From: a virus
Strand: one strand, 5' to 3'
Virus record (IMG/VR): IMGVR_UViG_3300017730_000002
Span: 32,001-96,000 of that record
Length of the DNA: 64,000 nucleotides
In this document: positions 9,688 to 63,624 of the stretch, one piece after another
Numbering within the stretch: the first letter of the stretch is position 1
Layout of the letters: each line of letters begins with the position of its first letter
Position numbers and translations under genes: made by a program
Notes under the pieces: generated by a model
Told to the model about the DNA's origin: nothing
Databases searched by the model: none
Seen by the model: the letters and a program-made list of their open reading frames with translations, nothing else

Positions 9688-10374
9688 ACTATAAGATAAC
9701 AATATCTGCGGACATTCCCAAGTGTAATGGATCTACGGAGGTAGAAATGTTCTATGCAAGACATTGTAGTGACTCTTGTATCAGATGGCCCCCACCACCT
9801 ACCACCCTGTTGGTACCCCCCTATGATTTGTACAGGAGAATGTGTTTTTGCTGACACAAAACCAAAAAAGCATGCTGCTGAGAAAAGTTTAGCAGGGTTG
9901 TGCAAGGTGCAAGACACAGTGGTGCTTTGTGTTGTGTAGTTTCTTTTTGTTTAGTTTGTAGATTATCCTCTGTCACATGGATTAAGTTCCATAACAAGAT
10001 AAGACTGTAAAGTCCAGTATAAAGCAAACTCCTAAGCCCTACAAGTTGAAATCATATACACTTGAGGGCTTTCTTTTTTTTTAGTTTGTAAAGTTTTATA
10101 CTATTCAAAGAAACAATCACCTTGTGTGCACAAGTGGGTGGACAGCATTGTTGAGAAGAGTATATGTAATTAGGGACAATGTACAGTAAGGTACATCCCT
10201 TTCTTTTTTTTTAGTTCTGAGGTGCAATGCAAACCTCCCGCTAAAGCACTTAGCCTTTAACACACACATAAGGGGAGGAACATTCTCAGACGTGAGAGAA
10301 AACAATGGTTAAGGCCCATTGTTTTTTTTGTGTTGTTTCTTTTTTTTTAGTGTTGAACTTTTAAAACCCATACT

Positions 10375-10548
10375 ATGAAAAATACTAAAGTTCAAATCTT
10401 TTCTGTTCCTTGTAATGAGGCTGAAGCCATTACTGCGGTTCAGAAAAAGATTAATCAGTGGCTTACCACTGGCTTATTAATCAAATATGAAATGCACACT
10501 ACTGCTACTCATATTGTGTTTAATGTTGCATTGAGAAAAGAGGCTTAG
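10375..10548 (+). CDS. 57-aa early hypothetical protein
   Basis: MKNTKVQIFSVPC...LRKEA*; between motif copies, ends in hairpin. Confidence 0.65.
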   Translation: MKNTKVQIFSVPCNEAEAITAVQKKINQWLTTGLLIKYEMHTTATHIVFNVALRKEA

Positions 10549-10727
10549 GCCTCTTTTGTTTCTTTTTTTTTATTAACTAAGTAGTGTAACACCTTAAAAC
10601 GATTATATCCTTGATGTGCTAGTGTGCATAACCACACAGGTTTATTAGAAGTCCTTAAAAGTAGCGGAGGAGGTGGCACTACTTTTTTCCTTTATTTCTT
10701 TTTTTTTAGTTAGGAAAATTATATACT

Positions 10728-10868
10728 ATGAGAAAGAAACATTTGATACCCGTTGTTTGGTTTAGTGTAATTATCCTAATTGCAACACTATTATGTTCCT
10801 GTGGATCAGGAAAAGTTAGCTGTGATGCATATGGTTCAATTGATAACACTGAAATAGATAAGGCTTAA
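10728..10868 (+). CDS. 46-aa small lipoprotein
   Basis: MRKKH-hydrophobic-LCSCGSGKVSCDAYG; paralog at 16066. Confidence 0.7.
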   Translation: MRKKHLIPVVWFSVIILIATLLCSCGSGKVSCDAYGSIDNTEIDKA

Positions 10869-10906
10869 CAGCCTTTTCTTTTTTTTTAATTAATAAAATT
10901 AAAAAT

Positions 10907-10993
10907 ATGAAAACAGTTGGATTAGATACGTTTACTACAGTAATACTAATGACATACTTTGTATGTGGTTTAATAGTTGGTTTATGCAGTTAG
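10907..10993 (+). CDS. 28-aa hydrophobic peptide
   Basis: MKTVGLDTFTTVILMTYFVCGLIVGLCS*; fills one motif-to-hairpin cassette, A-rich start. Confidence 0.5.
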   Translation: MKTVGLDTFTTVILMTYFVCGLIVGLCS

Positions 10994-11046
10994 GGGCTCT
11001 CGCCCCTTTCTTTTTTTTTAATTGGGAAATTTTAAAATATAATACT

Positions 11047-11394
11047 ATGAATGAAGAAAAATTTATTGATGTAAATGGTTTCCAAGTTATGGACTTAGCT
11101 CCTGATATGCAAAGAAAGTTAGCTTTAGTTGATTTAGATGTGTTAGTTGAGATAACAAACTCACTTCAGAAAGTTAACTCTCGTATAATTAAGCAAGATT
11201 TAATTGCAGAACTTCAATCTGTAACTAATAATGGAGAACTAACGCGAATGCAACAGTTGCTGTATATTTGTGAAAAGTTTGTTACACTTCACAAGACTGT
11301 TTTGAAAATTCAAAATATTGAGCATCCTTTAAATGAAAAAGCAGTAGCTGACCTTAATCCAATTAAAGGTAAAGACATTAGTGACATAAGTTAG
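11047..11394 (+). CDS. Early hypothetical protein
   Basis: Start MNEEK after motif copy 8. Confidence 0.7.
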   Translation: MNEEKFIDVNGFQVMDLAPDMQRKLALVDLDVLVEITNSLQKVNSRIIKQDLIAELQSVTNNGELTRMQQLLYICEKFVTLHKTVLKIQNIEHPLNEKAVADLNPIKGKDISDIS

Positions 11395-11447
11395 TGTATA
11401 GCCCCTTCGGGGGCTTCTTTTTTTTTATTTGTGAAAACTTAATTACT

Positions 11448-11810
11448 ATGGAAGAAGAATTTAAAATGGTTTGTACTGCCTCTAAAGGCAGTTATGGCAC
11501 AGGGTTTGAAGACGTGTTTGATAACATTGAAGACCTTAAGAGAGCAATTGTAAAACACGAGTGTAATCCTTGGGATGAAGAAGACAACACTTATACAGAA
11601 GATAAGTATACTGATGAACTGTTTAAGGAGGTTTGCAAAGCAAAAGATTATACTGTTGTTATTGTAAAACTTCACTCATCAGAAAAGATATCATTTGATG
11701 AGTATGACGGGACATCATCTCCTTATATTGAGAAGATAGACCCTCAGTTTAAATCTGTAATGGAATATGCAACAGAAAGACATTGGGACTTATTGAACTC
11801 AAAGGAGTAG
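11448..11810 (+). CDS. Early acidic hypothetical protein
   Basis: Start MEEEF after motif copy 9. Confidence 0.7.
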   Translation: MEEEFKMVCTASKGSYGTGFEDVFDNIEDLKRAIVKHECNPWDEEDNTYTEDKYTDELFKEVCKAKDYTVVIVKLHSSEKISFDEYDGTSSPYIEKIDPQFKSVMEYATERHWDLLNSKE

Positions 11811-11928
11811 CATTTCATAGTGCAGGGGGTAGTTCCCTTGCACTTTGTTTTGTGTATATACCACAATTTTTTTGCAAAAAATTGCATCTTCCTTTTTTCT
11901 TTTTTCTTAATTATGAAATTTATTTATT

Positions 11929-12345
11929 ATGAAACATCAGAATTATTATTACAATTACAATTTTGCAACCAAGCAAGAAGGCTTGAGTTCATTAGACTTT
12001 GAAGAGTGTCTTAAGCAATGCACATTAGTTGCAGGTAACATAATGGCATTAGACCAATTTAATGCTATCGTACCTGTAGATGAATCCCAATGTGTGGACA
12101 TTCCTACTGCAACTGCCACTGCAAATGGCAATGGCACTTTCAGAGTACCTACCTATCCTATTGAGTTATTGGGAGACTTTACCGTAATAGAAAGAGAGTT
12201 TGACCATAGACCTTGGTTTAAATGTTGGGTAGGCAAGGGTGGATATACAATAGGGGAAAGAAATGTCAATAAAGGCTGTTTCTCTATAGTTGAAACTCAT
12301 AAAGGCTTTGTGCTGTATTTGGGACAAAGATACAGACAGTACTAA
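11929..12345 (+). CDS. Early hypothetical protein
   Basis: 138-aa ORF after motif copy 10. Confidence 0.7.
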   Translation: MKHQNYYYNYNFATKQEGLSSLDFEECLKQCTLVAGNIMALDQFNAIVPVDESQCVDIPTATATANGNGTFRVPTYPIELLGDFTVIEREFDHRPWFKCWVGKGGYTIGERNVNKGCFSIVETHKGFVLYLGQRYRQY

Positions 12346-12519
12346 TATTTCATAGTGTGGGGTGTAATAGCCCTGCACTATAAATAGGTTGTCCCGTTGG
12401 GGCATAGGGCTATTGCTGTACACATATGTGGGTAATCACAATTTCTTTCAGAAATTGCATCTTTTCAGTTTCTTTTTTTTTATTTAGGAGTTTATTTATT
12501 AATTAATATATGATTTCAT

Positions 12520-12939
12520 ATGAAACTTAAATTTGAGTTTAAAGCAGATGTCTATAACGGCATCACAAGACAAGTAGCAAATTTTACAGGTACATTAGTA
12601 TCTATTGCTAAATTACCAATCAAGAATGTCAATAACACAGAGTATTACCCTGCAACTGTTGATATGAAAGATTCTCACGGGAATGTTCGTAAAGGTACAT
12701 CTTGTATGATTTACAAAACATCCTTTGACAAAGGTATGGAGATAGGACAAGACTATCTTGGCTCCGTTACCATTGAATCAGGTAAACAACCACTTATTAA
12801 GCTTACTTCAGGTACAGGCAATGGCACTCGTGCTACTATGGACGACTTTGACTTCCAAGTTGCTCCTGCACCACAACCTGTTGCACAACCTACTCAGGCT
12901 ACTACAGCCACAGAGAGTAACCTAAGTGACATAGGATAG
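12520..12939 (+). CDS. Early hypothetical protein (beta-rich, possible OB-fold) with Pro/Ala/Gln tail
   Basis: 139-aa ORF after motif copy 11. Confidence 0.65.
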   Translation: MKLKFEFKADVYNGITRQVANFTGTLVSIAKLPIKNVNNTEYYPATVDMKDSHGNVRKGTSCMIYKTSFDKGMEIGQDYLGSVTIESGKQPLIKLTSGTGNGTRATMDDFDFQVAPAPQPVAQPTQATTATESNLSDIG

Positions 12940-13365
12940 GACAATAACACTCTGCACAGCAATGTGTGGAGTGTCCTTTCAGGCTTCGCCTATCTTATTT
13001 GTTTCTTTTTATTTAGTTGTTAGTGTTCCACGTAACAATAAATAAAGTAATTATGGTCGTAAGGCATAGTATGTCCCTAAATGGTCATAAGAATACTTAA
13101 CATTGTTGGAACACAGATAGAATTGCGGAAATACTTATGTGTCTTAATCTGTTTTAGATAGTAAAACTATACCCTATATCATTGGTTGTATATTAATATC
13201 ATAATTATTCTATAGTATATAGTATTATAATATTTTATATAGCTAACTTTTTCATAATAGGTTAAGTAATAATAGTTGTTTTCTTATATATAGGATTAGT
13301 ATACTCTCTATATAGAAGATAAGATACATAGTATCCCGCATTTAGATTTGTTTGAATAGATTTAG

Positions 13366-13605
13366 GAGGGAAAACCTCGGTCATAAGGTGGGCTCTTATG
13401 ATTACTGTTGACTTAGGTTCGCTACCTTCGTTGTATCAGGGCTTAGATGTTTCGTCTAGGGTTTAATAATGCCTTTGGGTTCAACTTTTCTTGGTTGGGC
13501 AAGTGCTTCGCACTTCTTGAGTATTCAAACATTAAATAGGTACAAGTAGGGTGTATTCCCGTAAATTAGTTCTTGCTAAGTTGACAGAGAGTCAAGCCTT
13601 TTTTA
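13366..13605 (+). ncRNA. Putative structured ncRNA (~240 nt)
   Basis: ORF-free; serial hairpins (GGTCATAAG/CTTATGATT, TAGATG/CGTCTA, AAGTGC/GCACTT, TTGAC/GTCAA) ending in U-tract. Confidence 0.5.
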
Positions 13606-13615
13606 TTTACAAACC

Positions 13616-14410
13616 TATGACTAGAGAGTCGGTCATAGTATAAATGGAATAGAAATTAGAAATTGTATAGGTTCTAACGTAATTTTAAAAGTTAGTATAG
13701 GCATACAACATATGCTTAGAGGTCTGGATGACTGTCTGTCCTTAAATGTGAACTATACTATGCAATATTTTCTTTTCGCGATTTATTATCATTTCTAATT
13801 GATATGCTTCGGCTATTAATTAGTCTTAATCCCAAGTTGTCGGGATTTAAAATCACAGATGTTGAACTGTGATATGAATTCGTTCTAATAGACAAAACAC
13901 CGTGTAATCAGTACCTTTCTTGTAAGGGGAGCAGTTGCACACAAGGGTGGATAGGACAAAGACCTTACAGGGTTCTAAAACTATCAGTGTTATATGTAAA
14001 GAGTACGGTCTGTAAACTGTACGTGGTTGCATATGAAATTAGGGATTTGAGCTACTATCCTAGTAAAACGTAAAATGCTAAGTCTTAACTAAAAACAAAG
14101 AACTGGACAATGACGTGAAGTCTAAAGCTTATGGTGTAATTAGAAGTGCCTAATCATAGTTTAGAAATGAACTGTGTTATCCCGCAAGGGGTTGTGAATT
14201 TTATGTGCCAGCATAATTGAAGCAACACTTAATTGAGATGTCATTGGCCAATGATATTGATAGAGAGTAGAATGATTACATCTTATCCTGTTACTATGCA
14301 GTCGATCATAGTATGGCAAAGTTAATGAAGGATTTTTCTATCCGTGTGCTAACCCTTACAAATTGAGGGGTCATTAACATTTTGAACCGAGTAGTGCTAG
14401 GTTCTTTTTT
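13616..14410 (+). ncRNA. Putative giant structured ncRNA (~0.8 kb)
   Basis: No ORF >=60 aa; many nested helices, cUUCGg and GCAA tetraloops, terminal terminator. Confidence 0.65.
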
Positions 14411-14431
14411 ATTCACTTAAAACATTTTGAA

Positions 14432-43855: not shown

Positions 43856-43890
43856 AAGGGAGATGGCTTAGGCTGTCTCCCTTTTTTTTT
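43856..43890. terminator. Terminator between convergent gene blocks
   Basis: AAGGGAGATGG/CTGTCTCCCTT + T-run. Confidence 0.75.
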
Positions 43891-49905: not shown

Positions 49906-52900
49906 TTAAAATCCACAGAAATCATCTGTTCTATCTATTGGAGGTTTACCCTTAGGTCCAAATTCTTTTTTAACATCTTCTTCAAATTTACTTAAGTCTC
50001 TCTGATCCATACGGAGAGTACCATCTGGATTACGTACTACTCTTCCAGATAAATATCCTGGAGGTTGATCACCAGTTGTTGTATCGGTAGTAAAATCAGT
50101 ATTAAGATTTCTTCTAGTTAAAAAGCTATCTGTAAGAATTTGTAGAACTTGTTTATTAGATAAAAGATTTAATAACCACTTGGTAAACTTCTTCCACCAG
50201 TTTAGAGCTTCACCTTTTTGTGCTACTACTTGTTCTCCTATAGCTTGAACTAAAGCTTCTTCCCCACCAAATCTTCTTATTCCTTCCTGAACAAGTTCAT
50301 TGTCTCTAAAGTATGCAATGTAATGATGAGCATACTCATGAGGCAAAGTATCTTGTTTTTGGTTTGCCGCATCAATTAAAACAGTCATAGCTTTTATATT
50401 AGCCTGACCTATAATTTTATCTTTGTAAGTTTGATTTAATAAATATAAATCACTAAATACATTAGTAGTGCTACCATAAACAAGTTTATTTGTTAAACGA
50501 CTGTTTAAATCAGTTAAGTCTGCTAACTTTTGAAAAGGTGCTTCATAACCAGTAAACAAGCTCTCCTGAACTTTATCCCATTGATCTGTAGCAGTCATAG
50601 AAAGCACTCCTTCAGCTATACCATTGTTTAAGTCTTTAAATAACTTACCACTTGATTCTGCAGTTACAGCATTTAAGAACCAACCTGGAACTGGAGCCAT
50701 TATATCTCCTGCTGTATTTATATCTTTATCGTCTGCAGTAAATTCATCTTTATTAGCAAGTACATATTTAACCAAGTCTTGTTTAGCTTTTAATTTTACA
50801 TACTCTTCATTTTTTTTACGTTCAAGTAAGTCATTACTATTATGAAAATAGGTAGGGCTTGTTAGTCCTCGCAAACCATCAGTAATACCATTAGTAGCTA
50901 GGATATCTTCTGCTAAATCACCAAGACCACTTTCTATGGCAGATGATGGTGCAGGTCCGTAATAATGCTCCCAAGACAGCTCAAACTGAGATATCCTTCC
51001 TTTAACAAGATCAGCTTTTCTTTGCTCAGGTGTTTGAAATTGTACTTTAAGTCTTTGTTTTAATAACTCCTTTTCTAAGTTTTCTAAAGCTACATAATCA
51101 ATTCCTTTTTTGATTCTGTCTGTATTATTTTTAAAATCTTTTAAAGCAAGTTGTGCATCAATCCAACGATCATCAGATGATGTGACTTCTTCACCACTAT
51201 AATATGTTACATCTTTATATAACTTTTCCCCAGTAACTGGATCTTTTCCAGCACGTTCTCTTCGTTTAGAAGGTACTCTTTCATATAACTTATCTAGTTT
51301 ACCATTTATAAAGTTATATGTATATATACCTTCTTTTCCTTGTAAGTTAAAATCTCTACGAACACCAGGAAATGTTTTAGTAATGTATGGACTCATACTT
51401 TGACCAATATCAAAATAATTCTGAGCAGTTACAAAAAGTTCAAATAAATCCTTTTTAGTTTTTGTACCATTATCAAATCCTGAAATAGTATCTTTAATCT
51501 TTTTAATTTCTAGATCTGCTAAATACTCAAGATCTTTATCGGCTTGTTCAGCTATTTCAATGTCTTTAATGTATTGAGGATTATTAGGATCCATACCGCT
51601 TTTTTCTCCTTCCTCAAGTCTTTTAAGTTCTTGTTGAGTTGACCAATCAAGAATTTCTTCACCGTAAGTATCATATAATAAATAACCTAATGCATAAACA
51701 TCTAAAGTAACTCTACCTCCATACTCTACGTTTATATACTTATAAGGATCACTCTTTATAGCATTTTCCATTGTAGCTAAAAAAGCTACTTTATTTTTAC
51801 GGCTAAATGCATAAAATTGAGAAGCGGCTTTTTTTAAAGGTGCTGTTAATTCTGCAATAACTTTTTGCGTTGTTTCTTGAGATCTTTTCATCTCCTGATT
51901 GAACACATCTGGACTAGAATCAAATCCAATGGGATCATTTGTAAAATTCAGCTTTATGTTAGGATACTTTTCTCTTAATACAGCTTCAATTTTCTTAGAT
52001 AACTCTTCACTAAATTTAGTATCAAATCCAGTGGTGTCAGGACCTAAAATTATTTCAGGGTTTCTACTCACAAAACTTTCAAAACCTTTTAAGTCAGCTT
52101 CATTACCTAGTATATGTATTTGATCTATATCATATACCACATAAATATCTGTAGGAGTTGGATCCATTGTATTTTTTATAATAGAAGAATCCTTATTAGT
52201 TTCTTTATCTTCTTTTATAATAGCAGCAAATGACTTATCTCTTCTAGTTTGTTCTTTTTGCGTATAAGTACCAGGATTTTTCATATCCAAAATAACTTTA
52301 ACTAAATTTCCATCAAATGCAGAAAAACCTTCTTCTCTTGTTTTTTTTATAAACTCAGAAGCTTCTTTAAATGTTAAGTTCTTTCTTATTCTTTCATCAG
52401 ATTGAAAAGCATCTCCAGTTTGTTTAGGTTTTAAATAGACAGCATATTTAATCTTGTTATCATAAAATTCATTTGCTTTTGCAAGTCTACCTTTTTTAAA
52501 TGCATATAATGTAAAAGAACCACCGTCATCATCCATTACATTTCGAGGCTTTTCAAAAAATTCCTCTTGCTGTTCTAAAGTTGATTTATCATATAAAGTC
52601 TTTAATATACCATTAGCATCAATAGTATCTTGTTCTATGTATGTACTAAAAGGGTCCGCTGTTAAATATTCTAAAGCTGTTGAAGGGTTATCTGCAAAAA
52701 AGAACCCTTCTTGTGCAGATGAAGATCTAGTATAAGATCCAAGTTTTTCTTTTGAAAATGGTTTAAAATTTTCATCAGTACCATGATATAAAATATCTTT
52801 TACTTGACTATTTGGGAATATAGATTGTATGTATTCAGCATATTGTTCTTTTGTACCAATAGCAGCAAGCTCAGGATTTTCAGAAAACAGCACATCTATT

Positions 52901-55900
52901 TCAGGATTAACTTGATCAGTAACCATTAGCTTACTAAACTCGTCATTGAAGATAATGTTAGATGGTATAGGTCCTGCAGATGCAAACATCTCTGCCATCT
53001 CTAAAGGACTATATCCATTTAGATTTCTACCTTGTGTTGTGTATAAAACATATGCATTTCTACTAGGATTTTTTGTATAGTAGTCATACATATTTTTTAT
53101 TTGATTTATAATCTCATCTTTAGGAACCTGTCTAGCAGGATCATCCATAGGAAGTTGCCAATCAGTTACGGTTTGTATTGCATAAGATGAACCTTCCGTA
53201 CCTGTTTGAAATCCTCTAGGTTGGCCTACTATAACTCTAAGACCCTTACCTTCAATCTTTTGTTTTTTATATGCTCTAGAATCATTAGCATATAGAATAC
53301 CAGCTGTACCTCCACCGTGGAATCCATCTTGATTAGATCCAAATACAGTATCTTCATTACCTTTTAGGTTTTTAATATCAACAAGACCTGTATAAGTTTT
53401 AACCTTAGCAGGCGGTTGAGTAGATTTATCTATGTTTCCACTTTTTACAGCATTATGTCTAAGTGTAATACTAAATCTTTTAGACTTATTTCCTTCAGCA
53501 TCTATACCATGTTTATAATTGATTTGCCCATCTTTACCCATTATTAAACCTAGGCCAGATTTCATAGATATTTTATATTCTTTTTTACCCTTTAGAATCA
53601 TAGTTCTTTCATCACCAAAACTTATAGTTACTACAGAAGGATTTAACTTACCTTTATTATTTAATATAGGCTCGTTGTCTGTATGGAATCCTATTTTTTG
53701 ACTACCATCCTTATATTCATTTATAAGAACCATATCAAAGTATCCATCCTCAAAACCTAAATCTCTAGTTATTTTAGAGACCAACCTTTGAAGTTCAACA
53801 CTTCCTGTATTAGCAGGCCTAGTTGTCCCTGAATAAGAATAACTTTCATCAGAAAAATACATACTGCGTCTACCCCTACCAAATTTATCAGAAGACTTAT
53901 GCTCAGATTCATAAGTTTGATCATACAATGTTTCTATAAAATCAAAAACTTTTTTAGACTCTTCGTTTGTAAAAACTTGTTTAGTAAAAACTTCGGCATC
54001 TTCTACATTAACACTTTTTAAACCCTTGGTATTTACTAAACCATTAGTAAGTAAAGTTGCAATGTCTAAATCACTACTTTGATCTGTTGGTTGAACAGGA
54101 GCTATAGGAGCACCATATTCTTTAGGATCTACCACTAAGTCTATAAACTTATCGGTTGACATTTTACCAAATTTTAAAAGCTTCTTAAATACAAATTCAA
54201 AAGTAGCATCATTGCTTTGAGCATCTGTGAAATTCTGACCAGCTACATTCATTATATTTACAAAGTTCTCATAAGGAAGAACATCAATCATTGAATCTCT
54301 ATTATATCCACCTGTACCATTTTGATATATAGATATCAAAGGTAACCTCGCAAATAATCTAGACAATCTTAAGTTCTCAGCTCTATCAGCTACTTTCTTT
54401 ACAGCAGGGTCTGCAAGATCTTTTAAGTTTTGGTAATAGATATCGCCAAGACCTTCTGTCTTTTTTACTTGAGATATGTTTCGTAATGATAAAACTTTTA
54501 TACCAACATTATCACCAAACTGTTTAGGAATATAAAGCTGCTCAAGTATAGGATACTTTTGCTTTAAATCTGCATTTCTGTCTATACTGTCAATTACAGT
54601 TTGTGAATAAGAATAAGCTCCTGTTCCCATAATTACAGATCTATTATAAGAATCCAGAAGCGCTTCTTTATTCAAGAAGTATTCATAGGCTTGTTTTGTA
54701 GCATTCTCTTCAGTAAAATTAAACTGAGTTTTTAAAGTATTCTTAACAGCAATAAATTCTTTGTCACTAGATATATTTTCTAGTGGTATTCTAGATCTTA
54801 AATACTCTCTTGCTATTACATACTTTTTATACTGTATAACATTATCAAATATATCTTTATTAAAAGTTCTTAGACCTTCTTTAGGATATGTTATAGAATT
54901 TTTTAGATAAGCTTTGTTAAAAAAGTCTCTTTCTATTTTAGCATTATCTACATATATAACATCTGACTGTTCTGTCATATTAGCCATTGCACCTCTTTCT
55001 ACACCTTCTCTGTTTATAATCTTACGGCCCATGTATGTTTCAGGAGTAGATGTTAGCTTACCATTAGAATCCACAAAACCTGTCTGATAGTTTTGGAATA
55101 TATAATCCATCAAACTATCTTTAAATCTTGTTATAAGTAAAGACTTCTCATCTCTGGTTGCTCTTATAAAAGGAAGTTCTCTCTTAAGAAAATCATTAAC
55201 TCTGTCATTATTTCTAAATTGAAACACAGGAGTTACAATATCTTTAATAAGATCACCTATCCTGAAGCTACTTAATATAGATTCTTCTCTTAGTTTTCTT
55301 ACAAGCTGTTGATCCACCTTTGTTAGATCAGCTAAACCTTCATAATTAGCTTCTTTAAGAATTATTTCTTGTAGTGTTCTTGATGTAGTTGTATCAGGAT
55401 TAGACTGAAGCTTTAAACTTGTCAAACCTTTTAACTGCTTTTCAATTTCTAAGAAATGAAGAAACATATTTAATCCTACGTTATTTGCTCTAGGATCATT
55501 TGAAATAGTATCTCTATTTACAGAAGCCATATCACTAGTAGTAAAGACATCCTTATCTCCCATTCTTCTACTTAAAACATCATAGAAGTTTTTATTAGTT
55601 ATATACTGGTATACCGTAATATCTTGATAATCTTCTGTTGTAAACTCAAGTAAGCTACCCTTTCTATTTTGTTCAAGAGCTATTTTTTCAATAGTTCTAC
55701 CTGCAGCTTCGTATTTTACAAACTGGCGCTCAACACCTTCTGTTGAATACTCGCTACCCAGCTTTCTCTGTTGAGCAGCGTATTCTATTACATAAGGGTT
55801 AGATACAAACTGTACTGCTGACTTAATTGGAACACCAGCTTTTATTAAGTACAAAAGTATCGGAGCTACCTCTCTATTACCTTGAATGTTAAACACCCAA

Positions 55901-58900
55901 GGATCCTTTTCAATATCTACAAATCCATTTAACAATTGATTATAAAGCTCATTAATGTTATTACCATCTTTTGCTGTAACATCCGATATTGATATAGATC
56001 CATCAGGAAACTCATTATGTGGTAAGAATAGTCTCATATTATAATCACCATCTGTAAGTGTCCAGCCGCTTTTTATAAAATTAGGAAGACTTGTCTCTTT
56101 AATTACTTCTCTTTTGCCTGCTTTATCTACTACAGTAACGGCTTTAACATATCTCTTAGTTGCATTATCATATATTTCTGGAGAGTATTTTTTAGGCATC
56201 TTACCTCCTTGGCTGTTTATTATAGGACTTAATGCATTTTCTATAGCTACAATACCAAGTACTCTTTTACCTATCATGTTCTCAGTATGCTTCTGTAAAT
56301 TATAGATAGGCTCGATTGTTCTTGTTGGACTTATAACCTTTGTCTCTTTGCCGTTTTTATCTACTTTAATTTTGACACCTTGACTTCTGTTAGCGTATCT
56401 ATCATAAGTTGCTACATCATCTCCAATTTCATCAGCTATCTCTTCTTTTAATAAATAAGTAGCATTAGGTTTTACTAAGTTAGCATAGTTAGATTTTAGA
56501 CTAAGTATCTCAGCCATGTTAAACATTATATCATTTTGTAAAGCAAGCTTCTTAGTATTAAATATCTTTTTCTGAGTAGCTTCAGTAGACATGTTTGCCA
56601 TCTCAATAGTCTTTTCTACAGAAGAATTATATTCAGTCAAAGACCCATCAGAATTTATGTTAGGAAAAAATATATTAAGCTTATCAATATCAAAGTCAGA
56701 TCCTGATTTAGCAACTATCTCTGTTGGAAGTATTATAATGTTACCCGCACTTGCTGGAAGAAATTCATGAACCTCACCAAATTCCATATAGTTAATACCT
56801 CCAACAGGAATACGTGTACCTACTATGGTAACCTTTTTTCTATTTTCACCATTATTAGCATCTAACCACTTTTCGTCCTTTATAAGCTTATTTAAATTAG
56901 CTAAACTAGCCTCTTCATCTAAAACTCTAGTTGTATTTTCTACACCAGAATCATCTATATATGTTTCTTCTCTATATACAGCAACGTCATCAAGTCTTAA
57001 AAGATTTTTAAAACTACCTTGCATCGCAATAGCTACTTTCATACCTGCAGTACTACCATCTTCTGGTTTAGTTCTGTAAAAAGGTAAATCGTTTGTACCT
57101 CGATATTTTTGAATGTCTGCTGTACTTGCTGTTTTGTACTCAGCTTGATTCCACATACCGTTGGTCAAAGCACTAGAAACTTGAACTAAAGACTCACCAT
57201 TAATTCTTTGATTAATAATTCTTTTTTGAATTAGATTAATTATCATTGACTCAATATCACCAGCTTTAAAGTGATATGATAAATCAGTTTCTAAAGTTCC
57301 ATTTACATTCTTTCCTACAAATTCTATTTGATGTTCAGGGACATTTCTTCTGCCTAATTCTCTTTGAACTAAGCTTAAGAAGTTATTAATATTACCTATA
57401 TACTTATCGCCTTCTTTTCTATATCCTATTTCAGACAAAAGCTCTTCTTCTAAAATCTTTTCATAATCACTTATCAATTTAGCGTATCTTTCTGCAGCAT
57501 CCTTAGCATCAGGATCTGTAATAATACCTCTATTATAGAGATCTTTTAAGATCATTTTTCTAAACTGAGTAGAAAATATAGTTTGTTTTTTAAACTTCTT
57601 TGGAACGCCTGTTACATTTTTAAGATACTCTACGTAGATAGTATTCATAGTAAAGTCAATATCACCCTTTAGTGTATCTTGCTCTTTATTCTCAGCATCA
57701 AAAATTATATCAGCGCCTTCTGGATTAGATGCTATATGTGAAACTTTAGAACCTGTCTTAAATAAAGAATAGTGAATACTTTTATCCATCATTTGTTCAT
57801 GAAGACTTTCTAATTCACCAGTCATTACCCCAGGTATCAATGGCATAAGTGAAAATTTATGCATTGAATTAACAGGTAACTTAGCTTGTTTTATACTACC
57901 TGAATAGAATAACTTATATGGCGGAAAGAATTCAGTAACTTCATTTATACCCACATATTCTCCTCTAGAAATTTTTTGAAACAAAGCTTCTTGCTCATAG
58001 CTCCAATCATTTTCTAAAAATCTTAAAGATCTGTATGCATCAAAAGTAATATAACCTTGGCCATCAGCCTCTTCCATTCCTTTATAAACACTGAGATCTC
58101 TCTTTACAAGTTCATCTACTCTAGCTTTATCAAAGTTTTTACTATAGAATTCTCTGAGACCCTTTTCTATCTGATCTAAATATTCACTGTCTCTTTCAAT
58201 GTCTTTCATAATAGCAGTATTTAAACTACCATCATACCTAAGAGTCTTCTTACCATTTTGCTCTGCATAAGAAGTCTTTTTTAAATGACCATTAACGAAT
58301 GTCTGAGCTGCTTTATCTACTCTAAAAGTTTTACCACCAGACTTAGTACCAGGAGATCTTTTTGAAAGCTCTTCTTTCTCATGATTGTATTGTGATAAAT
58401 CACCTTCAAGTAAATTTGCAGTTTCAAAATTATGAATCCATGAATTATACACATAAGCCGCAGCTAATAATTTCTGTTGTCCAAGTGGATCTTCAGTAAT
58501 TTTATTAACCTCTTCTAATAAGTTCTTACTTAAATAGTCATTTTCTGCAATTTTTAACCGAACCTCAGTTGCTAACTTATTAAAATACTCATTTATTTCA
58601 CCTTTTATCTTAGCTTGTAATGTGATGTTTTCATTTTCTAAATAAGATTCTAAATCAAAAAACTTACCTTCATTTTTATCAATGATGTCATATATTTCTT
58701 GCTTAGTATCATCAGTTAATACGTCATCAAATATTGTAAATGACTCACCTGCCATTCTACCATTAGTAAGTTTATTATTAAATCCTACATAGTTTTTAAA
58801 CTCTGGGTTACTCTTAAACTTATGGATCCTGTTAGCTTCAGAAGCTAAGTAGCCCAATATAAACTCATTGTTTATTAACTCTTGAGTACCTCGATAATCA

Positions 58901-61900
58901 CTAAACTTGTCTATATCAATGTATAAATTAGAGTTCTTTTTATTAAGATCAAATCCTAACTTACTTTTAATAGACCCTGTAAACTTTAAACCAAATGCAG
59001 ACTTCTTAGATGCAGCTCTAATAAACTCTTGTGTTCCACCTAGCAGCATCATGTGAAGCTCTTGTGAGAACTTAGATCCTTCATCTAAGTCAGCGGTATT
59101 AGTACCTCCACCTGTTTCTTTAGTAGTACCAGAATCTAAGAATAATTCAAGATTAGCATTTTGTATACGCTTGCCGCTTGTTGCAGTAGAGTTTAAAGAA
59201 TACATACTTCTTAAAAGTACTGACTTAGATGTAAAAGGATTTATGTCAGGACTAAGATAATTCATTGGATTATTTTCACTATCTATAAGATTTTGAAAAT
59301 CTTCTGCATCATTTATTTTGGATGTTCTTGTAGATACTGTATTATTTTCTATATACTCATATACTATATTTCCTTCTGCATTCTGTACACCAAATATATT
59401 AGCCGCTTCTCCAAATCTTCCTTGTAAACGTGCTATTCTATCTATCTGAGTTTTTTGAGACGTAGCAGATGTAGACGTAATGCTTTTATCTAAAGGTCTT
59501 TGAAGTGTCTTAATGGGATCCTGCAGTAAGTCAGATAATCTATCAGTTTGTGTTTTACTTAAAGGCGCATCCTGAGTGCTTACTTTATCATATACATTTT
59601 TAAGATTACCATAGATATATTCTAAACCATAAAATCTTTGACCCTCTGATGAAGTTAATTCGGTTCTTATGGTATCAATATTATCTACATATAAACCAAT
59701 TGCTCTAAGAAATTCTACAGACTTAGACGTATCAAACTTGCCATTTTTACCAAAGTCTTGGATAACCTTTTCTAAATTTAACTCTGTTATTTTTGAAGAT
59801 GGGTTCAGTGTTGTGTATGGGTTATCCATATCACTCATGTACTGATTTCTAAACGTATTAATAACATTTCTAGCATCAGCAGATGCATTATTTACTTTGG
59901 CTGTATCATCCTTAAATAAAGTTAGCTGTATATAAGGTACTCTTGACTTATTAAAATCCTGCCAGAAAGATGTAGTAGCTTTAAAGTCATAAATATTATT
60001 AGCTGCTATACTTGGGTTGGGAAGCTTAGTTGAAGTCAATTGTTTAAAAGGTGCATACATGTCACCTGCCTTAACCAGTTTATCATACATTACTTGAGGA
60101 TCAGATTCACTTGCAATAGTTCTTACAACATTATTCCACGTTAACCTAAAGTCAGCAAGCTTTTTAAATCCTAAAGAGTTTAACTTAGTCTTGCCACTCT
60201 TGTCTGTGTCATGCAGACTTTTAAGCATGTATATTGTTTCCTTACCTGCAAACTCTAATAATGATTTATCTCCAACTTTTTTATCAGCAAATCTTTCACC
60301 AACTTCTTCAGCTGTATTTTCATCCTTAGTAAGTTCATCTTCTATATATGTATCTGCTAGAATCTTATATGTACTGTTTTTCAAATGGAAACCTACCGTA
60401 CCATCTGTTGCTGTGCCATAGTTTTCTACAGCAGCTGTAAGTACTCTTATGTTTTCATCAAGCTGATCTACTACAAATTCATTCTCCTCGGCAACTTCTA
60501 CTCTTTGTGTTTTAAATTCGTTTAACTTTTCCTCAAGTCTCTCTTTTATTACATCATATAAAATAGACTTTTTACCAGGATCCAAAACTAACTTAAGAGC
60601 CATGCCTTTATTATTTTCAGAGTCAGTGCTTCTTAAATCCATAGTAACTTCATCAACTATATCAGATATAATTGAATCCATACTATCTTTAACTAAAAGA
60701 GATTCGCTTCTTGTTAAAGCTTGTTTATCGGTACCAGGTTCTGTAATACCTATGTTTCTTTCTAACTCATCAAACTGTACATTCTCAATGGTAGGTGTAT
60801 ATTTATTGAGACCTTTGTTATAATAAAGAGCTTCAAACATTTCTTGAACCATTTGAATTTCCATTACATTAGATGCATATCCTACACCAAACAACTTTTT
60901 TAAGAAATTTAATATTCTTCTAAAGAAAGTATTTCTTTTAGGAGATCCTTTTTTAGCTTTTGGATTTTTAGCATAAGTTCTAAACTCTTCTGCAAGAATT
61001 TCTTCTATTTCCTGAACACTATAATTTTTACCACCTTTTAAAGATTTTTTAACTTCTCTATATAGAGCTCTTTTTTCTTTAGGTGATAAAAACAATTGTG
61101 TAAATCCATGCCATGCTTCGTGATATAAATCAACTGATGAACCTTTCTTAGCGATCTGTATTGTACCATACTTACCTGCAAGAATACCGCCATATGAAAT
61201 AAACTTAGCAAATGCATCTGAGTTAACTATATTAACTCCTACCTCTAAATCTAAATATTTACTAAGGTCAGATTTATTCCACCAATCAATTGCTTTTTTA
61301 TTTTGCTCAGATGTACCTTTATCTTGAGTTAATGTTCCAGATCTTTCTAAACCAAATCGTTTAGCTATACCTCTTTCATAAGGTGTATTTGTTCCTGCTT
61401 TAGTTGTAGCATCATCTATTTGTTCTTCCTTAGATTTAGTCTGTCTATTTTTATACAGCTCTTTATAGTAAGGTACTCTACTATCTTCCTGAGCATAAAA
61501 ATCAGTTTCTTGAACATTGCCAATAACTTCCCCAGTAGTACTATCCACTACAGATAAGAGTTCGGGTATAAAAATTTTAGTCTTGTTATCAATTTTTTCT
61601 TCTATTACAAATGTTATAGGCGCACCTACCATAAAGGGAATTGTGACATTTCCATATTTATATTTATCAGCAAGATAGATTTTCATTGTTTGACCATCCA
61701 CAGGTGATTGAAATAGTATATATGCATAAGGACCTTTACCACCAGGTCTTTCTCCATTTTCTACTGCAGATATAGTAGTTGTAGTTACAGTACCAGCATT
61801 CTTTACAAAAGCTGCAAGAGCATCTTTTCTTTTTCTAATTTCAGATGGTTGCTTTTCTTTAGCATCTTCTAAAGATTTAGTTACTTTACTGGGTATAGCA

Positions 61901-63624
61901 AAGTTCATATATTGATTAAACACCTTTTCAGCATTAGCTGAAGATAAATCAATTTTACCACCTTTTAAGGAAGCAAGATAATCAGTGTAAGATATGCCAG
62001 ACTTTTGAAGTTCGCCTGTTTCAATATTGTAATCTACAAAAGCATCACTTGCTAAGTTACTCTCATTAAATATTATACTTATAGGATACTTTACGTTTTT
62101 AAACTCACTAGCATTCATGAGTGTATCAACTATAATAGATTTAGCTTCTGGACTTTTTAAATCGAGAGGCTTTGATTTCTCTGTAGGATTCTTTTGAAAA
62201 GTATCTTCAAAATAAGAAAACTGAATTGTTTTATTATTATCTAGATATTTTATACCATGTCTTCTTTGTTTTCTACTTTTAGTATAAGGAGATAAGAATT
62301 GCTTTATGTAAGCTGATCTTTCATTATAATCTAACTTATCATTTATTAATACCTCAGCAATTTTTTCAGCAGTAGCTTGATCAAGAGCAGGTCTATTTAC
62401 AGTAAACTGCTCACCTCTTATATTTATTGTAGACTTGTATACATTCTGTGATTTTAATGGTGTTATTGTTCTTATTGAATCCTGTAAACCAAACTTAGAA
62501 AGAGTTCCTAATGTTAAACTTTTTTGTGTATATGCGGCCTCTACACCTGCAGAGAAACCTACAAGAGCTAATGATTTTACATCACCATTAAGAATGCTTT
62601 TATTTAAATCGTATAAGCTTTTAAGCTGCTCTTGAAATATTTTTTCAGCAACTTCTTGAGTTACTTCTTGATCAGCCATAATCCTAGCAACGTTATTTGC
62701 CAATACTTCGTATCCATAAAGATTTACAGGTTTATACTTACCACCTTTCTTTACCACGTTTCTCATCATTTGATAGACAATCTGCCCACCCGTTTGAGTT
62801 ATGTTTCCGTTATTATCAAATTTAATAGGGTTACCTTCTTTATCAGCTAATACAGTTAAGATAACTTCATTTGGGTTTATTACATTTGCCTTAGACTTTC
62901 CTGCTCTTATTATAGCAGAAGCCTTCAATAAAAAGTTACCAGTTATCTTATCTAGATCCTTAACATCCATATCAGATAACTTCATAGGCTTTAGGGTAAC
63001 GTCTACTCCTTGATAAGATATAGTACCAGTTACACCTTCTTCCTGAACATCTTCAGCTTGTTGTATATTGTTAAATACAGTATAAAAAACTTTTCTTTCT
63101 TCTGAACTTTTTTGAATTAATGTTTCATCAAGTTTATTAGGATCAAGAGTTTCAAATTGTTGAAACGTTGTGCTAAATACATTAGTTGGCTCAAGCCTAA
63201 CAGGCTCAAGTCTATCTACAGATGATGGAGGTATCTTAGACGTAGTCAACTCTGTTTGAAACACAGCTTCTTTTAAAACGCTTTGACTTTGCTGTGGTGC
63301 AAAATGTTTAAGTACATTTCTTAGGCCAACGTTAGGATCAGCAAAAAGTTTATTAAGCTTAAGTATTGGATCTACATTTAGCTCAACATCATTAATAAAG
63401 TTTGGTAAGGTTGAATAAGCTTTAAACACCATTAGTGGTACAGGCTGTAAGAATTTCACAGCAGTATCAATATCTTTTGCTTTTGTAATCTTTTTAAAAA
63501 GATCTTTCATATATGCATCAGCATCAAATGGAGTATTTTCCGATTGAGCTTGCTTCATCTTTTTAGTTACAGCAGTATATATCTTTTCTAATTGTATGGG
63601 GCTAACAGCACAAATTATTTTCAT
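49906..63624 (-). CDS. Giant virion RNA polymerase polyprotein (crAss-like two-barrel RNAP) with accessory domains
   Basis: GSDFDIDK catalytic loop (~56690), DGQG, RIP motifs; HEAWH and HEYAH zincins; AlkB-like and ART-like domains. Confidence 0.85.
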   Translation of the reverse strand: MKIICAVSPIQLEKIYTAVTKKMKQAQSENTPFDADAYMKDLFKKITKAKDIDTAVKFLQPVPLMVFKAYSTLPNFINDVELNVDPILKLNKLFADPNVGLRNVLKHFAPQQSQSVLKEAVFQTELTTSKIPPSSVDRLEPVRLEPTNVFSTTFQQFETLDPNKLDETLIQKSSEERKVFYTVFNNIQQAEDVQEEGVTGTISYQGVDVTLKPMKLSDMDVKDLDKITGNFLLKASAIIRAGKSKANVINPNEVILTVLADKEGNPIKFDNNGNITQTGGQIVYQMMRNVVKKGGKYKPVNLYGYEVLANNVARIMADQEVTQEVAEKIFQEQLKSLYDLNKSILNGDVKSLALVGFSAGVEAAYTQKSLTLGTLSKFGLQDSIRTITPLKSQNVYKSTINIRGEQFTVNRPALDQATAEKIAEVLINDKLDYNERSAYIKQFLSPYTKSRKQRRHGIKYLDNNKTIQFSYFEDTFQKNPTEKSKPLDLKSPEAKSIIVDTLMNASEFKNVKYPISIIFNESNLASDAFVDYNIETGELQKSGISYTDYLASLKGGKIDLSSANAEKVFNQYMNFAIPSKVTKSLEDAKEKQPSEIRKRKDALAAFVKNAGTVTTTTISAVENGERPGGKGPYAYILFQSPVDGQTMKIYLADKYKYGNVTIPFMVGAPITFVIEEKIDNKTKIFIPELLSVVDSTTGEVIGNVQETDFYAQEDSRVPYYKELYKNRQTKSKEEQIDDATTKAGTNTPYERGIAKRFGLERSGTLTQDKGTSEQNKKAIDWWNKSDLSKYLDLEVGVNIVNSDAFAKFISYGGILAGKYGTIQIAKKGSSVDLYHEAWHGFTQLFLSPKEKRALYREVKKSLKGGKNYSVQEIEEILAEEFRTYAKNPKAKKGSPKRNTFFRRILNFLKKLFGVGYASNVMEIQMVQEMFEALYYNKGLNKYTPTIENVQFDELERNIGITEPGTDKQALTRSESLLVKDSMDSIISDIVDEVTMDLRSTDSENNKGMALKLVLDPGKKSILYDVIKERLEEKLNEFKTQRVEVAEENEFVVDQLDENIRVLTAAVENYGTATDGTVGFHLKNSTYKILADTYIEDELTKDENTAEEVGERFADKKVGDKSLLEFAGKETIYMLKSLHDTDKSGKTKLNSLGFKKLADFRLTWNNVVRTIASESDPQVMYDKLVKAGDMYAPFKQLTSTKLPNPSIAANNIYDFKATTSFWQDFNKSRVPYIQLTLFKDDTAKVNNASADARNVINTFRNQYMSDMDNPYTTLNPSSKITELNLEKVIQDFGKNGKFDTSKSVEFLRAIGLYVDNIDTIRTELTSSEGQRFYGLEYIYGNLKNVYDKVSTQDAPLSKTQTDRLSDLLQDPIKTLQRPLDKSITSTSATSQKTQIDRIARLQGRFGEAANIFGVQNAEGNIVYEYIENNTVSTRTSKINDAEDFQNLIDSENNPMNYLSPDINPFTSKSVLLRSMYSLNSTATSGKRIQNANLELFLDSGTTKETGGGTNTADLDEGSKFSQELHMMLLGGTQEFIRAASKKSAFGLKFTGSIKSKLGFDLNKKNSNLYIDIDKFSDYRGTQELINNEFILGYLASEANRIHKFKSNPEFKNYVGFNNKLTNGRMAGESFTIFDDVLTDDTKQEIYDIIDKNEGKFFDLESYLENENITLQAKIKGEINEYFNKLATEVRLKIAENDYLSKNLLEEVNKITEDPLGQQKLLAAAYVYNSWIHNFETANLLEGDLSQYNHEKEELSKRSPGTKSGGKTFRVDKAAQTFVNGHLKKTSYAEQNGKKTLRYDGSLNTAIMKDIERDSEYLDQIEKGLREFYSKNFDKARVDELVKRDLSVYKGMEEADGQGYITFDAYRSLRFLENDWSYEQEALFQKISRGEYVGINEVTEFFPPYKLFYSGSIKQAKLPVNSMHKFSLMPLIPGVMTGELESLHEQMMDKSIHYSLFKTGSKVSHIASNPEGADIIFDAENKEQDTLKGDIDFTMNTIYVEYLKNVTGVPKKFKKQTIFSTQFRKMILKDLYNRGIITDPDAKDAAERYAKLISDYEKILEEELLSEIGYRKEGDKYIGNINNFLSLVQRELGRRNVPEHQIEFVGKNVNGTLETDLSYHFKAGDIESMIINLIQKRIINQRINGESLVQVSSALTNGMWNQAEYKTASTADIQKYRGTNDLPFYRTKPEDGSTAGMKVAIAMQGSFKNLLRLDDVAVYREETYIDDSGVENTTRVLDEEASLANLNKLIKDEKWLDANNGENRKKVTIVGTRIPVGGINYMEFGEVHEFLPASAGNIIILPTEIVAKSGSDFDIDKLNIFFPNINSDGSLTEYNSSVEKTIEMANMSTEATQKKIFNTKKLALQNDIMFNMAEILSLKSNYANLVKPNATYLLKEEIADEIGDDVATYDRYANRSQGVKIKVDKNGKETKVISPTRTIEPIYNLQKHTENMIGKRVLGIVAIENALSPIINSQGGKMPKKYSPEIYDNATKRYVKAVTVVDKAGKREVIKETSLPNFIKSGWTLTDGDYNMRLFLPHNEFPDGSISISDVTAKDGNNINELYNQLLNGFVDIEKDPWVFNIQGNREVAPILLYLIKAGVPIKSAVQFVSNPYVIEYAAQQRKLGSEYSTEGVERQFVKYEAAGRTIEKIALEQNRKGSLLEFTTEDYQDITVYQYITNKNFYDVLSRRMGDKDVFTTSDMASVNRDTISNDPRANNVGLNMFLHFLEIEKQLKGLTSLKLQSNPDTTTSRTLQEIILKEANYEGLADLTKVDQQLVRKLREESILSSFRIGDLIKDIVTPVFQFRNNDRVNDFLKRELPFIRATRDEKSLLITRFKDSLMDYIFQNYQTGFVDSNGKLTSTPETYMGRKIINREGVERGAMANMTEQSDVIYVDNAKIERDFFNKAYLKNSITYPKEGLRTFNKDIFDNVIQYKKYVIAREYLRSRIPLENISSDKEFIAVKNTLKTQFNFTEENATKQAYEYFLNKEALLDSYNRSVIMGTGAYSYSQTVIDSIDRNADLKQKYPILEQLYIPKQFGDNVGIKVLSLRNISQVKKTEGLGDIYYQNLKDLADPAVKKVADRAENLRLSRLFARLPLISIYQNGTGGYNRDSMIDVLPYENFVNIMNVAGQNFTDAQSNDATFEFVFKKLLKFGKMSTDKFIDLVVDPKEYGAPIAPVQPTDQSSDLDIATLLTNGLVNTKGLKSVNVEDAEVFTKQVFTNEESKKVFDFIETLYDQTYESEHKSSDKFGRGRRSMYFSDESYSYSGTTRPANTGSVELQRLVSKITRDLGFEDGYFDMVLINEYKDGSQKIGFHTDNEPILNNKGKLNPSVVTISFGDERTMILKGKKEYKISMKSGLGLIMGKDGQINYKHGIDAEGNKSKRFSITLRHNAVKSGNIDKSTQPPAKVKTYTGLVDIKNLKGNEDTVFGSNQDGFHGGGTAGILYANDSRAYKKQKIEGKGLRVIVGQPRGFQTGTEGSSYAIQTVTDWQLPMDDPARQVPKDEIINQIKNMYDYYTKNPSRNAYVLYTTQGRNLNGYSPLEMAEMFASAGPIPSNIIFNDEFSKLMVTDQVNPEIDVLFSENPELAAIGTKEQYAEYIQSIFPNSQVKDILYHGTDENFKPFSKEKLGSYTRSSSAQEGFFFADNPSTALEYLTADPFSTYIEQDTIDANGILKTLYDKSTLEQQEEFFEKPRNVMDDDGGSFTLYAFKKGRLAKANEFYDNKIKYAVYLKPKQTGDAFQSDERIRKNLTFKEASEFIKKTREEGFSAFDGNLVKVILDMKNPGTYTQKEQTRRDKSFAAIIKEDKETNKDSSIIKNTMDPTPTDIYVVYDIDQIHILGNEADLKGFESFVSRNPEIILGPDTTGFDTKFSEELSKKIEAVLREKYPNIKLNFTNDPIGFDSSPDVFNQEMKRSQETTQKVIAELTAPLKKAASQFYAFSRKNKVAFLATMENAIKSDPYKYINVEYGGRVTLDVYALGYLLYDTYGEEILDWSTQQELKRLEEGEKSGMDPNNPQYIKDIEIAEQADKDLEYLADLEIKKIKDTISGFDNGTKTKKDLFELFVTAQNYFDIGQSMSPYITKTFPGVRRDFNLQGKEGIYTYNFINGKLDKLYERVPSKRRERAGKDPVTGEKLYKDVTYYSGEEVTSSDDRWIDAQLALKDFKNNTDRIKKGIDYVALENLEKELLKQRLKVQFQTPEQRKADLVKGRISQFELSWEHYYGPAPSSAIESGLGDLAEDILATNGITDGLRGLTSPTYFHNSNDLLERKKNEEYVKLKAKQDLVKYVLANKDEFTADDKDINTAGDIMAPVPGWFLNAVTAESSGKLFKDLNNGIAEGVLSMTATDQWDKVQESLFTGYEAPFQKLADLTDLNSRLTNKLVYGSTTNVFSDLYLLNQTYKDKIIGQANIKAMTVLIDAANQKQDTLPHEYAHHYIAYFRDNELVQEGIRRFGGEEALVQAIGEQVVAQKGEALNWWKKFTKWLLNLLSNKQVLQILTDSFLTRRNLNTDFTTDTTTGDQPPGYLSGRVVRNPDGTLRMDQRDLSKFEEDVKKEFGPKGKPPIDRTDDFCGF

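Follow-up and report, generated by a model that had tools for sequence, protein, structure and literature searches.

The DNA considered here is a window of 64,000 nucleotides (nt), bases 32001-96000 of the 109,286-bp IMG/VR virus record IMGVR_UViG_3300017730_000002, whose completeness is estimated at 93%. Genes in this window are directed leftward up to about position 9700, rightward from about 9940 to 43836 and leftward again from 44047. The rightward block begins with small ORFan genes, followed by a replication module (helicase, DNA polymerase, HNH endonuclease), and the second leftward block includes two large open reading frames (ORFs) of 1945 and 4572 amino acids (aa). At the head of the rightward block lies the element studied here, a T-tract motif of the form TTC-N9-A, present in 12 copies on one strand over 3.1 kb (9940-13022). 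The copies delimit 7 small ORFs of 28-139 aa and 4 ORF-free units of 117-123 nt, the last copy heading a 1.4-kb ORF-free stretch (Table 1). These 12 same-strand copies had been listed in an earlier note on this DNA and all were found again at their coordinates on the plus strand. Its description of one small gene or one RNA unit per copy also agrees with what the copies bound, i.e. seven ORFan genes and four ORF-free units.

Counted with the C as position 0 and with the copies aligned on it, the motif extends over 21 nt, (T)TTC-T9-A-N-T-(T)-NNN-A, and is thus longer than first described. The spacer of exactly nine nucleotides between C and A reported in the earlier note is present in all 12 copies, including the interrupted runs TTTTTGTTT, TTTTTTCTT and TTTTTATTT; at the nine T positions, three copies have one non-T each. 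The initial TTTC of that description is found in 11 of the 12 copies, the copy at 11414 reading CTTC, so that the invariant part is TTC. Its AnTT is found in 10 copies, whereas A-N-T is common to all. Position by position, TT, C, A+10, T+12, A+17 and a purine at +18 are conserved in 12/12 copies, T-3 in 11/12 and T+13 in 10/12. The 13-mer TTCTTTTTTTTTA has 15 matches with at most one mismatch in the window for 1.95 expected, 12 of them forming the cluster; without mismatch it occurs nine times in the whole genome, always inside the cluster and never on the reverse strand. A genome-wide scan of the plus strand with a loose form of the extended pattern (spacer 9) retrieved exactly these 12 copies, in line with the previous impression that the motif is not seen elsewhere. 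The same pattern with a spacer of 8 or 10 gave scattered matches only across the genome, in which the longest T-run is nine.

A metagenome scan with the 138-aa protein of the array yielded four contigs (L151-L154) encoding a protein 92-96% identical to it. Other routes to relatives were less productive: proteins of 293 and 139 aa led to one contig ending before the array and to nothing, respectively, a megablast of the region against GenBank phages gave no match, and a scan of IMG/VR for pairs of exact copies separated by 105-135 nt returned only an unrelated low-complexity giant-virus repeat and one stray match. In the four strain-level contigs, which are independent assemblies, the motif stands at every junction with its spacer of 9, though the flanks fall to 72-83% identity. 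The exact length and the flanking C and A are thereby kept, which points to selection on the length and supports the earlier view that the motif is not an ordinary U-tract. The motifs on both sides of the 115-aa cassette, itself 72-76% identical between strains, are unchanged, and the interrupted forms of the first and last copies are identical between strains. Position +10 is G or T in two strain copies of the TTTTTTCTT form, so that A is strongly preferred there and not absolute.

The cassettes differ between these strains in content and order. L151 is devoid of units 2 and 3 and of the 120-aa cassette and has two ORF-free units of 81 and 170 nt in place of unit 4. In L154, the 115-aa gene comes after the 3' end of the 120-aa cassette and additional genes of 70 and 54 aa are present. 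Comparing cassette order and content in relatives had been proposed as a check in the earlier note, and it revealed gain, loss and reordering between strains. When motif copies were paired between assemblies, both flanks were shared in 11 pairs, the upstream flank only in 12 and the downstream flank only in 12. The 24 chimeric pairs, in which one flank alone is homologous, bear out the suggestion that cassettes are shuffled at the repeats. Positions +11 to +17 segregate with the downstream flank, which places the crossovers inside a 14-nt core; one exchange falls in the shared first codons of two genes and not in the motif. Such crossovers, together with the variable cassette content and order, are what would be expected of a dedicated recombination site, integron-like or nickase-dependent, that served chiefly for cassette capture. 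This explanation is nevertheless very improbable, as no integrase or recombinase gene was seen beside the array in the part of the neighbouring ORFs that was scanned, the exchange in the first codons lies outside the motif, and short-homology recombination accounts for the pattern, as it does in the PeSL (promoter-early stem-loop) cassettes of T4-type phages.

The motif goes with the downstream unit and is phased to it, not to the upstream stop codon: the distances to the ATG or to the first helix are mostly steady while those from the stop codon range from 10 to 127 nt. From A+10 to the start codon there are 26, 20, 19, 27, 21, 20 and 38 nt in the window, and 20 nt for each of the two genes found only in L154, i.e. 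19-21 nt in six of nine coding cassettes, two of which are strain-only. The previous stop codon precedes the C by 14, 10, 17, 23, 89, 127 and 66 nt. The main closing helix of five of the seven ORF-free units (units 3 and 4 of the window, the unit after copy 12 and the two L151-only units) starts between +16 and +18, directly past A-N-T-T-NNN-A. A fixed position 19-21 nt upstream of start codons might equally befit a signal acting at the RNA level in one long early transcript, such as a U-rich RNase cleavage site separating the units or an S1-type translation enhancer boosting them, since the tract would be single-stranded and U-rich beside protective hairpins. However, the ORF-free units are also preceded by the motif, neither role requires an exact length or an invariant C and A, and read-through of many strong terminators would still be required, making an RNA-level signal quite improbable.

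The relation of the motif to transcription termination was analyzed by scanning the 55 nt that precede each copy for predicted folds. A stable hairpin (predicted free energy of -7 to -14 kcal/mol) ends 0-3 nt before the C in 8 of the 12 copies. For copies 4, 10, 11 and 12, the closest hairpin ends 13-15 nt away, and three of these four have their own terminator-like hairpin farther upstream. Copy 12 is 14 nt from the nearest predicted hairpin, a weak one at about 12976-12991, and about 29 nt from a strong one (12948-12973). The hairpins are unrelated to each other in sequence and their loops measure 4-13 nt. The T-run is very probably the terminator U-tract for most units, a role suggested by its position. 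The previous claim that the motif is distinct from the terminator consequently stands for the four copies whose hairpin is 13-15 nt off and fails for the eight in which the T-run is fused to it. Using a consensus scan, 13 terminator-like sites were detected in the array region (9000-15000) for 2.2 expected, and 14 in the 20-kb replication block for 6.6 expected, including one strong site at the end of the block. Because the array is so dense in terminator-like sites, each unit would need re-initiation.

One alternative is that the motif is a terminator part and nothing else, namely a preferred U-tract of nine Ts followed by A, with one promoter at the head of the array, partial read-through producing an attenuation ladder, and uniformity arising from recombinational copying of junctions. 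Besides the eight adjoining hairpins, this would explain why C-T9-A ends a clear terminator at 43856-43892, and it is compatible with the chimeric junctions, which show that the cores recombine, and with the hairpin ahead of copy 1, at which an upstream unit may end. We consider it rather unlikely for several reasons. Four copies have no adjacent hairpin, and the invariant positions reach 8 nt past the T-run, bases that a plain terminator does not need. Identity ends sharply at the motif edges between unrelated flanks, unlike in conversion tracts, and the distance to the next ATG is fixed whereas that from the previous stop codon varies. A separate motif that is not a T-tract is kept in the corresponding slot of relatives, as described below. 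Finally, 12 strong serial terminators would starve the distal genes if transcription were not re-initiated.

Two of the copies that are distant from a hairpin are associated with another element. An AT-rich palindrome, CAATTT-N7/9-AAATTG followed by CATC, is located at a fixed 11-12 nt upstream of TTC in seven copies across strains, namely copies 10 and 11 of the window and those of L153 (603, 1121) and L154 (91, 1338, 1578). It looks like the operator of a dimeric regulator. Recombination leaves this palindrome ahead of different genes in different strains. For copies 10 and 11, the elements follow each other as terminator-like hairpin, palindrome, motif, leader and gene; the upstream hairpins and the fixed distance of the palindrome suggest that this order corresponds to terminator, operator, start signal, leader and gene.

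More distant relatives were sought with the DNA polymerase, which gave 353 relatives, the best 80 of which were kept as loci; more loci were reached via a neighbouring gene of 107 aa. At the corresponding junction, five of the DNA polymerase relatives and further loci obtained with the 107-aa gene likewise have small genes and ORF-free units in an array. In these, the slot between the terminator T-tail and the ATG is occupied by one of two other repeated motif classes, A and B (Table 1), which start about 40 nt ahead of the ATG, usually after a pyrimidine tract. Naive k-mer motif discovery in these relatives was swamped by AT-rich low complexity, and both classes were read from upstream regions aligned on the ATG. 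Classes A and B are intermixed among close and distant relatives and have a common TAG-YY..TAAAC core. At the 57-aa gene, whose homologous DNA is found in G002, a class A motif occupies the place held here by the T-run motif, and T-runs after the hairpins of the G002 array are variable (5 to 9 long). Conversely, the present genome contains no class A or B cluster, and no other repeated element was found in the spacers of this phage. Apparent class B relics in units 1 and 3 were dropped, that of unit 1 being part of the terminator stem. The slot thus appears to be a start-signal slot throughout the clade, of which the T-tract motif is the sole conserved element in this strain cluster. Conservation of the spacer in relatives, set as a test in the earlier note, is accordingly split: the spacer of 9 is kept in L151-L154, and the motif is absent beyond the strain cluster.

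Host-type promoters were searched in parallel. The Bacteroidetes sigma-A two-box pattern (-33 TTTG / -7 TAnnTTTG) is absent from the array. It is found 6 times in the window for 5.4 expected, which gives no statistical support to the earlier statement that host-type TAnnTTTG elements appear elsewhere. The density of TAnnTTTG is 0.96 per kb in upstream regions and 0.73 per kb genome-wide, and a sigma-70 scan of the array gave 17 sites for 25.5 expected. With the two-box pattern at chance level, a host-type promoter reading was not supported. The boxes of Bacteroidetes promoters are usually 19-21 nt apart. The motif itself has only 8 nt from TTTC to TA, and no -35/-10 pair was found inside the repeat. 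It could still be a promoter read by the host RNA polymerase in a non-canonical or phage-sigma-dependent form rather than by an injected enzyme: its T-A-N-T-T after the T-tract faintly resembles the -7 box TAnnTTTG, an operator-like palindrome would fit factor-regulated host transcription, and the phage promoters defined in phi14:2 are host-type (Drobysheva et al., bioRxiv 10.1101/2020.03.07.982082). This possibility is improbable given the missing -33/-7 or -35/-10 pair at the right spacing, the below-chance sigma-70 scan and the restriction of the motif to the presumed early array; a change of motif class between close relatives would also be unexpected under a conserved host sigma factor.

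Another candidate reader is encoded by the phage. Residues 1501-3000 of the 4572-aa protein match the 'putative RNAP catalytic subunit' of crAss002 (tblastn, E-value 1e-6), cr108_1 (E-value 6e-22) and other crAss-like phages. The protein contains a DFDID motif at residue 2310, the same catalytic motif as gp66 of phi14:2 (Drobysheva et al., bioRxiv 10.1101/2020.03.07.982082). A phmmer search against the PDB matched an AlkB-like domain only and not 6VR4, the solved gp66 structure, and a PHROGs search gave no RNA polymerase (RNAP) family; the assignment is based on DFDID and tblastn. By these matches this marine phage is crAss-like and encodes a crAss-type polymerase module, in agreement with the location given in the earlier note. 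Identity to the modules of G004 and G005 is 44-51%, versus 67-68% for the DNA polymerase. Pfam also places an AlkB-like 2OG-Fe(II) oxygenase domain, above its cut-off, at residues 3222-3389 of this protein and gives a weak ART-PolyVal match, below the cut-off, at residues 3611-3654.

Taken together, these data lead us to propose that two transcription units meet at each motif copy, which would combine a terminator with a start signal in a composite junction. The proposal draws on the length constraint, the bases conserved past the run, the downstream phasing, the hairpin-less copies, the palindrome and the need to re-initiate, and we consider it the likeliest of the explanations, at about even odds. 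The nine-T run, often with the preceding TTC, would supply the U-tract for the hairpin terminator of the upstream unit, and the same 21 nt, TTC-T9-A-N-T-T-NNN-A, would act as the start signal of the downstream one. If initiation took place between A+10 and A+17, the small genes would have leaders of about 12-20 nt and the closing helix of the small RNAs would start at their 5' end. Identical 14-nt cores are also the points of recombination between strains, at which cassettes are added, lost and re-ordered, and recombination in the core could put a gene behind the operator of another cassette.

The reader of this signal would probably be the crAss-type RNA polymerase of the phage and not the host sigma-A holoenzyme, because the motif occurs only in the presumed early array, host-type boxes are lacking and the signal class changes between close relatives. 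More specifically, we tentatively suggest, as a possibility somewhat short of probable, that the 21-nt element is a promoter of the injected crAss-type RNAP with initiation between +10 and +17, the early signal having been switched wholesale between close relatives among at least three classes, the T-tract and classes A and B. Several observations weigh against the composite junction and its reading by this enzyme. The T-run stands exactly at the place of a U-tract in 8/12 copies, and a C-T9-A tail also closes the terminator at 43856-43892, a convergent junction where a promoter is unexpected. The TTC-T9-A cluster is absent from the examined relatives, whose DNA polymerases are 62-90% identical, so that a promoter specific to one polymerase would need a wholesale change. 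The array is taken to be early solely from its position and gene content. Lastly, in phi14:2, the sole crAss-like phage studied, the early transcripts made by the virion RNAP gp66 have no common upstream motif (Drobysheva et al., bioRxiv 10.1101/2020.03.07.982082), and no comparable T-run array is found in its early region.

As regards the contents of the cassettes, Pfam and PHROGs searches on all their proteins gave no meaningful family. Compared with shuffled sequences, two of the four ORF-free units fold better (z-scores of -2.9 and -3.1), one marginally so (-1.3) and one not at all (0.07). No Rfam match was obtained over 9600-14600 even at E-values up to 1, and tRNA-Arg was the sole match in the whole window at the gathering threshold. 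The 170-nt ORF-free cassette of L151 (5079-5228 of that contig) has a very strong predicted fold (z-score -3.7) and shares the core GTGTGTCCAAGGAGGTTGGGTAA with an ORF-free unit of the distant relative G002 (about 6000-6190); this common core suggests that certain small-RNA cassettes have been preserved despite the difference in motif class. The 1.4 kb separating the last motif copy from the gene at 14432 (13016-14431) contain no ORF of 60 aa or more, and parts of this stretch are 78-87% identical in G001 and G003 and 94-98% identical in L151 and L152. A C-rich element at the array head (9789-9829), G-rich on the minus strand, includes a small CACC/GGTG stem. It is kept in the same place in G001, G002, G003, G005 and L106 despite their differing arrays, and is 88% identical to that of G003. 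Possible roles are a first promoter, an origin or, on the other strand, a G-quadruplex.

Table 1. Features of the T-tract motif array, associated elements and the motif classes found in relatives
Feature	Position	Strand	Remarks
Motif copy 1 (TTTC-TTTTTGTTT-A..A)	9940..9960	+	Array head; identical in L151
ORF-free unit 1	9961..10069	+	Folds well (z -2.9); 10-bp terminator stem at end; 97% identical in L151
Motif copy 2	10070..10090	+	Hairpin adjoins, gap 2 nt
ORF-free unit 2	10091..10199	+	Fold no better than shuffles; not in L151
Motif copy 3	10200..10220	+	Hairpin adjoins, gap 3 nt
ORF-free unit 3	10221..10335	+	Folds well (z -3.1); not in L151
Motif copy 4	10336..10356	+	13 nt past a complete hairpin + T8 terminator (10295-10329)
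57-aa ORF	10375..10548	+	Homologous DNA in G002, there preceded by class A motif
Motif copy 5	10559..10579	+	Runs on from T-rich tail of hairpin 10536-10557
ORF-free unit 4	10580..10694	+	Closing stem from +17; two other ORF-free units (81, 170 nt) instead in L151
Motif copy 6	10695..10715	+	After closing stem of ORF-free unit and its T-rich tail
46-aa ORF	10728..10868	+	Lipoprotein-like N-terminus (read by eye), no family
Motif copy 7	10875..10895	+	Hairpin 10860-10875 adjoins
28-aa ORF	10907..10993	+	Hydrophobic
Motif copy 8	11007..11027	+	Hairpin 10992-11007 adjoins
115-aa ORF	11047..11394	+	Alleles in L151, L153 and L154 only 72-76% identical
Motif copy 9 (CTTC form)	11414..11434	+	Hairpin 11400-11415 adjoins
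120-aa ORF	11448..11810	+	Entire cassette missing from L151
Terminator hairpin of 120-aa cassette	11819..11844	+	Separate; 55 nt ahead of C of copy 10
Operator-like palindrome CAATTT-N9-AAATTG	11864..11884		Within CACAATTT..AAATTGCATC; 12 nt ahead of TTC
Motif copy 10 (TTTTTTCTT form)	11896..11916	+	No adjacent GC hairpin; 12 nt past palindrome
138-aa ORF	11929..12345	+	Query by which strain-level loci were found
Second palindrome copy CAATTT-N7-AAATTG	12439..12457		12 nt ahead of TTC; likewise present in L153 and L154 (11-12 nt)
Motif copy 11	12469..12489	+	No adjacent GC hairpin; 12 nt past palindrome
139-aa ORF	12520..12939	+	
Motif copy 12 (TTTTTATTT form)	13002..13022	+	Heads 1.4-kb ORF-free stretch
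Hairpin-like RNA, about 100 nt	13023..13125	+	Main helix from +18 of copy 12 (z -2.0)
Possible degenerate 13th copy, TTC-N10-A-C-T-T-AAA-A	14402..14422	+	Spacer 10; after GAACC/GGTTC hairpin, about 10 nt before ATG at 14432
Terminator, 12-bp stem, T9 then A	43856-43892		Strongest outside array; ends rightward block at convergent junction
4572-aa polyvalent virion-type protein with crAss-type RNAP module	49906..63624	-	DFDID at residue 2310, tblastn; candidate motif reader
Class A motif AAACAACTTTTTGCATA-NNN-TAAAC			AACAACTTT..CATA..TAAAC; G002, G003, G004, L106, L107, L108, L111
Class B motif (C)CTA(G/A)CC-YWW-AACTT			CCTAGCCCTAAACTT; CCTAGCC..TAAACTT; G001, G005, L113

The recognition target of the giant injected RNAP of crAss-like phages, a group of abundant marine phages in the present case, has been an open question since 2020, and the strain cluster provides a sharp and short candidate. 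The candidate signal makes clear mutational predictions (spacer 9, C0, A+10 and A+17), and natural controls are offered by close relatives whose slot is occupied by another motif. Should it be a virion-RNAP promoter, polymerase and promoter would have co-evolved rapidly, and this would be the first promoter defined for this polymerase family. Whichever enzyme is involved, the presumably first-expressed genes, probably acting in host takeover, and the putative small RNAs are swapped as self-contained units at a 14-nt junction. No description of such arrays in crAss-like phages was found in a literature search.

Several known systems can be compared with the array. Intrinsic (Rho-independent) terminators likewise consist of a GC-rich hairpin immediately followed by a U-tract, as predicted for 8/12 copies, but the exact tract length, the invariant flanking C and A, the bases conserved 8 nt downstream and the four hairpin-less copies set the motif apart. 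The virion-RNAP promoters of coliphage N4 are formed by a conserved hairpin with a 5-7 bp stem and a 3-nt loop at a fixed distance from the start. By contrast, the array shows hairpins of dissimilar sequence with 4-13 nt loops, and four copies have none next to them. A closer precedent for a virion polymerase is the Thermus phage P23-45, whose tape-measure-fused virion RNAP uses AT-rich pre-early promoters with a lineage-restricted motif, which was tied to the enzyme by mapping of transcription start sites and chromatin immunoprecipitation sequencing (bioRxiv 10.1101/2022.12.01.518664). The motif described here is also AT-rich and lineage-restricted, but it belongs to another phage group and polymerase lineage and is known from sequence alone. 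The phage phi14:2 shares with the present one a giant DFDID-containing polymerase and an early arm of small genes and ORF-free stretches; two long intergenic regions of phi14:2 give abundant transcripts (Drobysheva et al., bioRxiv 10.1101/2020.03.07.982082), and the ORF-free stretch 13016-14431 parallels these long RNAs. It differs in that here one sharp motif lies ahead of every unit, and the two polymerases have diverged too far for PDB 6VR4 to be matched by sequence.

In layout and in cassette exchange, the array resembles the PeSL cassettes of T4-type phages, for which promoter and terminator activity as well as recombination were demonstrated (Arbiol et al. 2010, PMC2839356; Comeau et al. 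2014, PMC4122927). In both systems, small and mostly ORFan genes of a plastic region are delimited by short repeats, which are composite terminator/promoters in PeSLs and putatively so here; between close relatives, these repeats mark the breakpoints of indels, replacements and re-ordering. The activities were measured for PeSLs, whereas the arrays described here have been read from DNA only. PeSL promoters are strong sigma-70-like host promoters, in contrast with the absence of sigma-70 or Bacteroidetes-type boxes here, where a length-constrained T-tract overlaps the terminator U-tract in a crAss-like phage with its own RNAP and where several cassettes encode putative small RNAs. As the defining sigma-70-like promoter is absent, the array is best described, by analogy, as a functional analogue of PeSLs and not as a member of their family.

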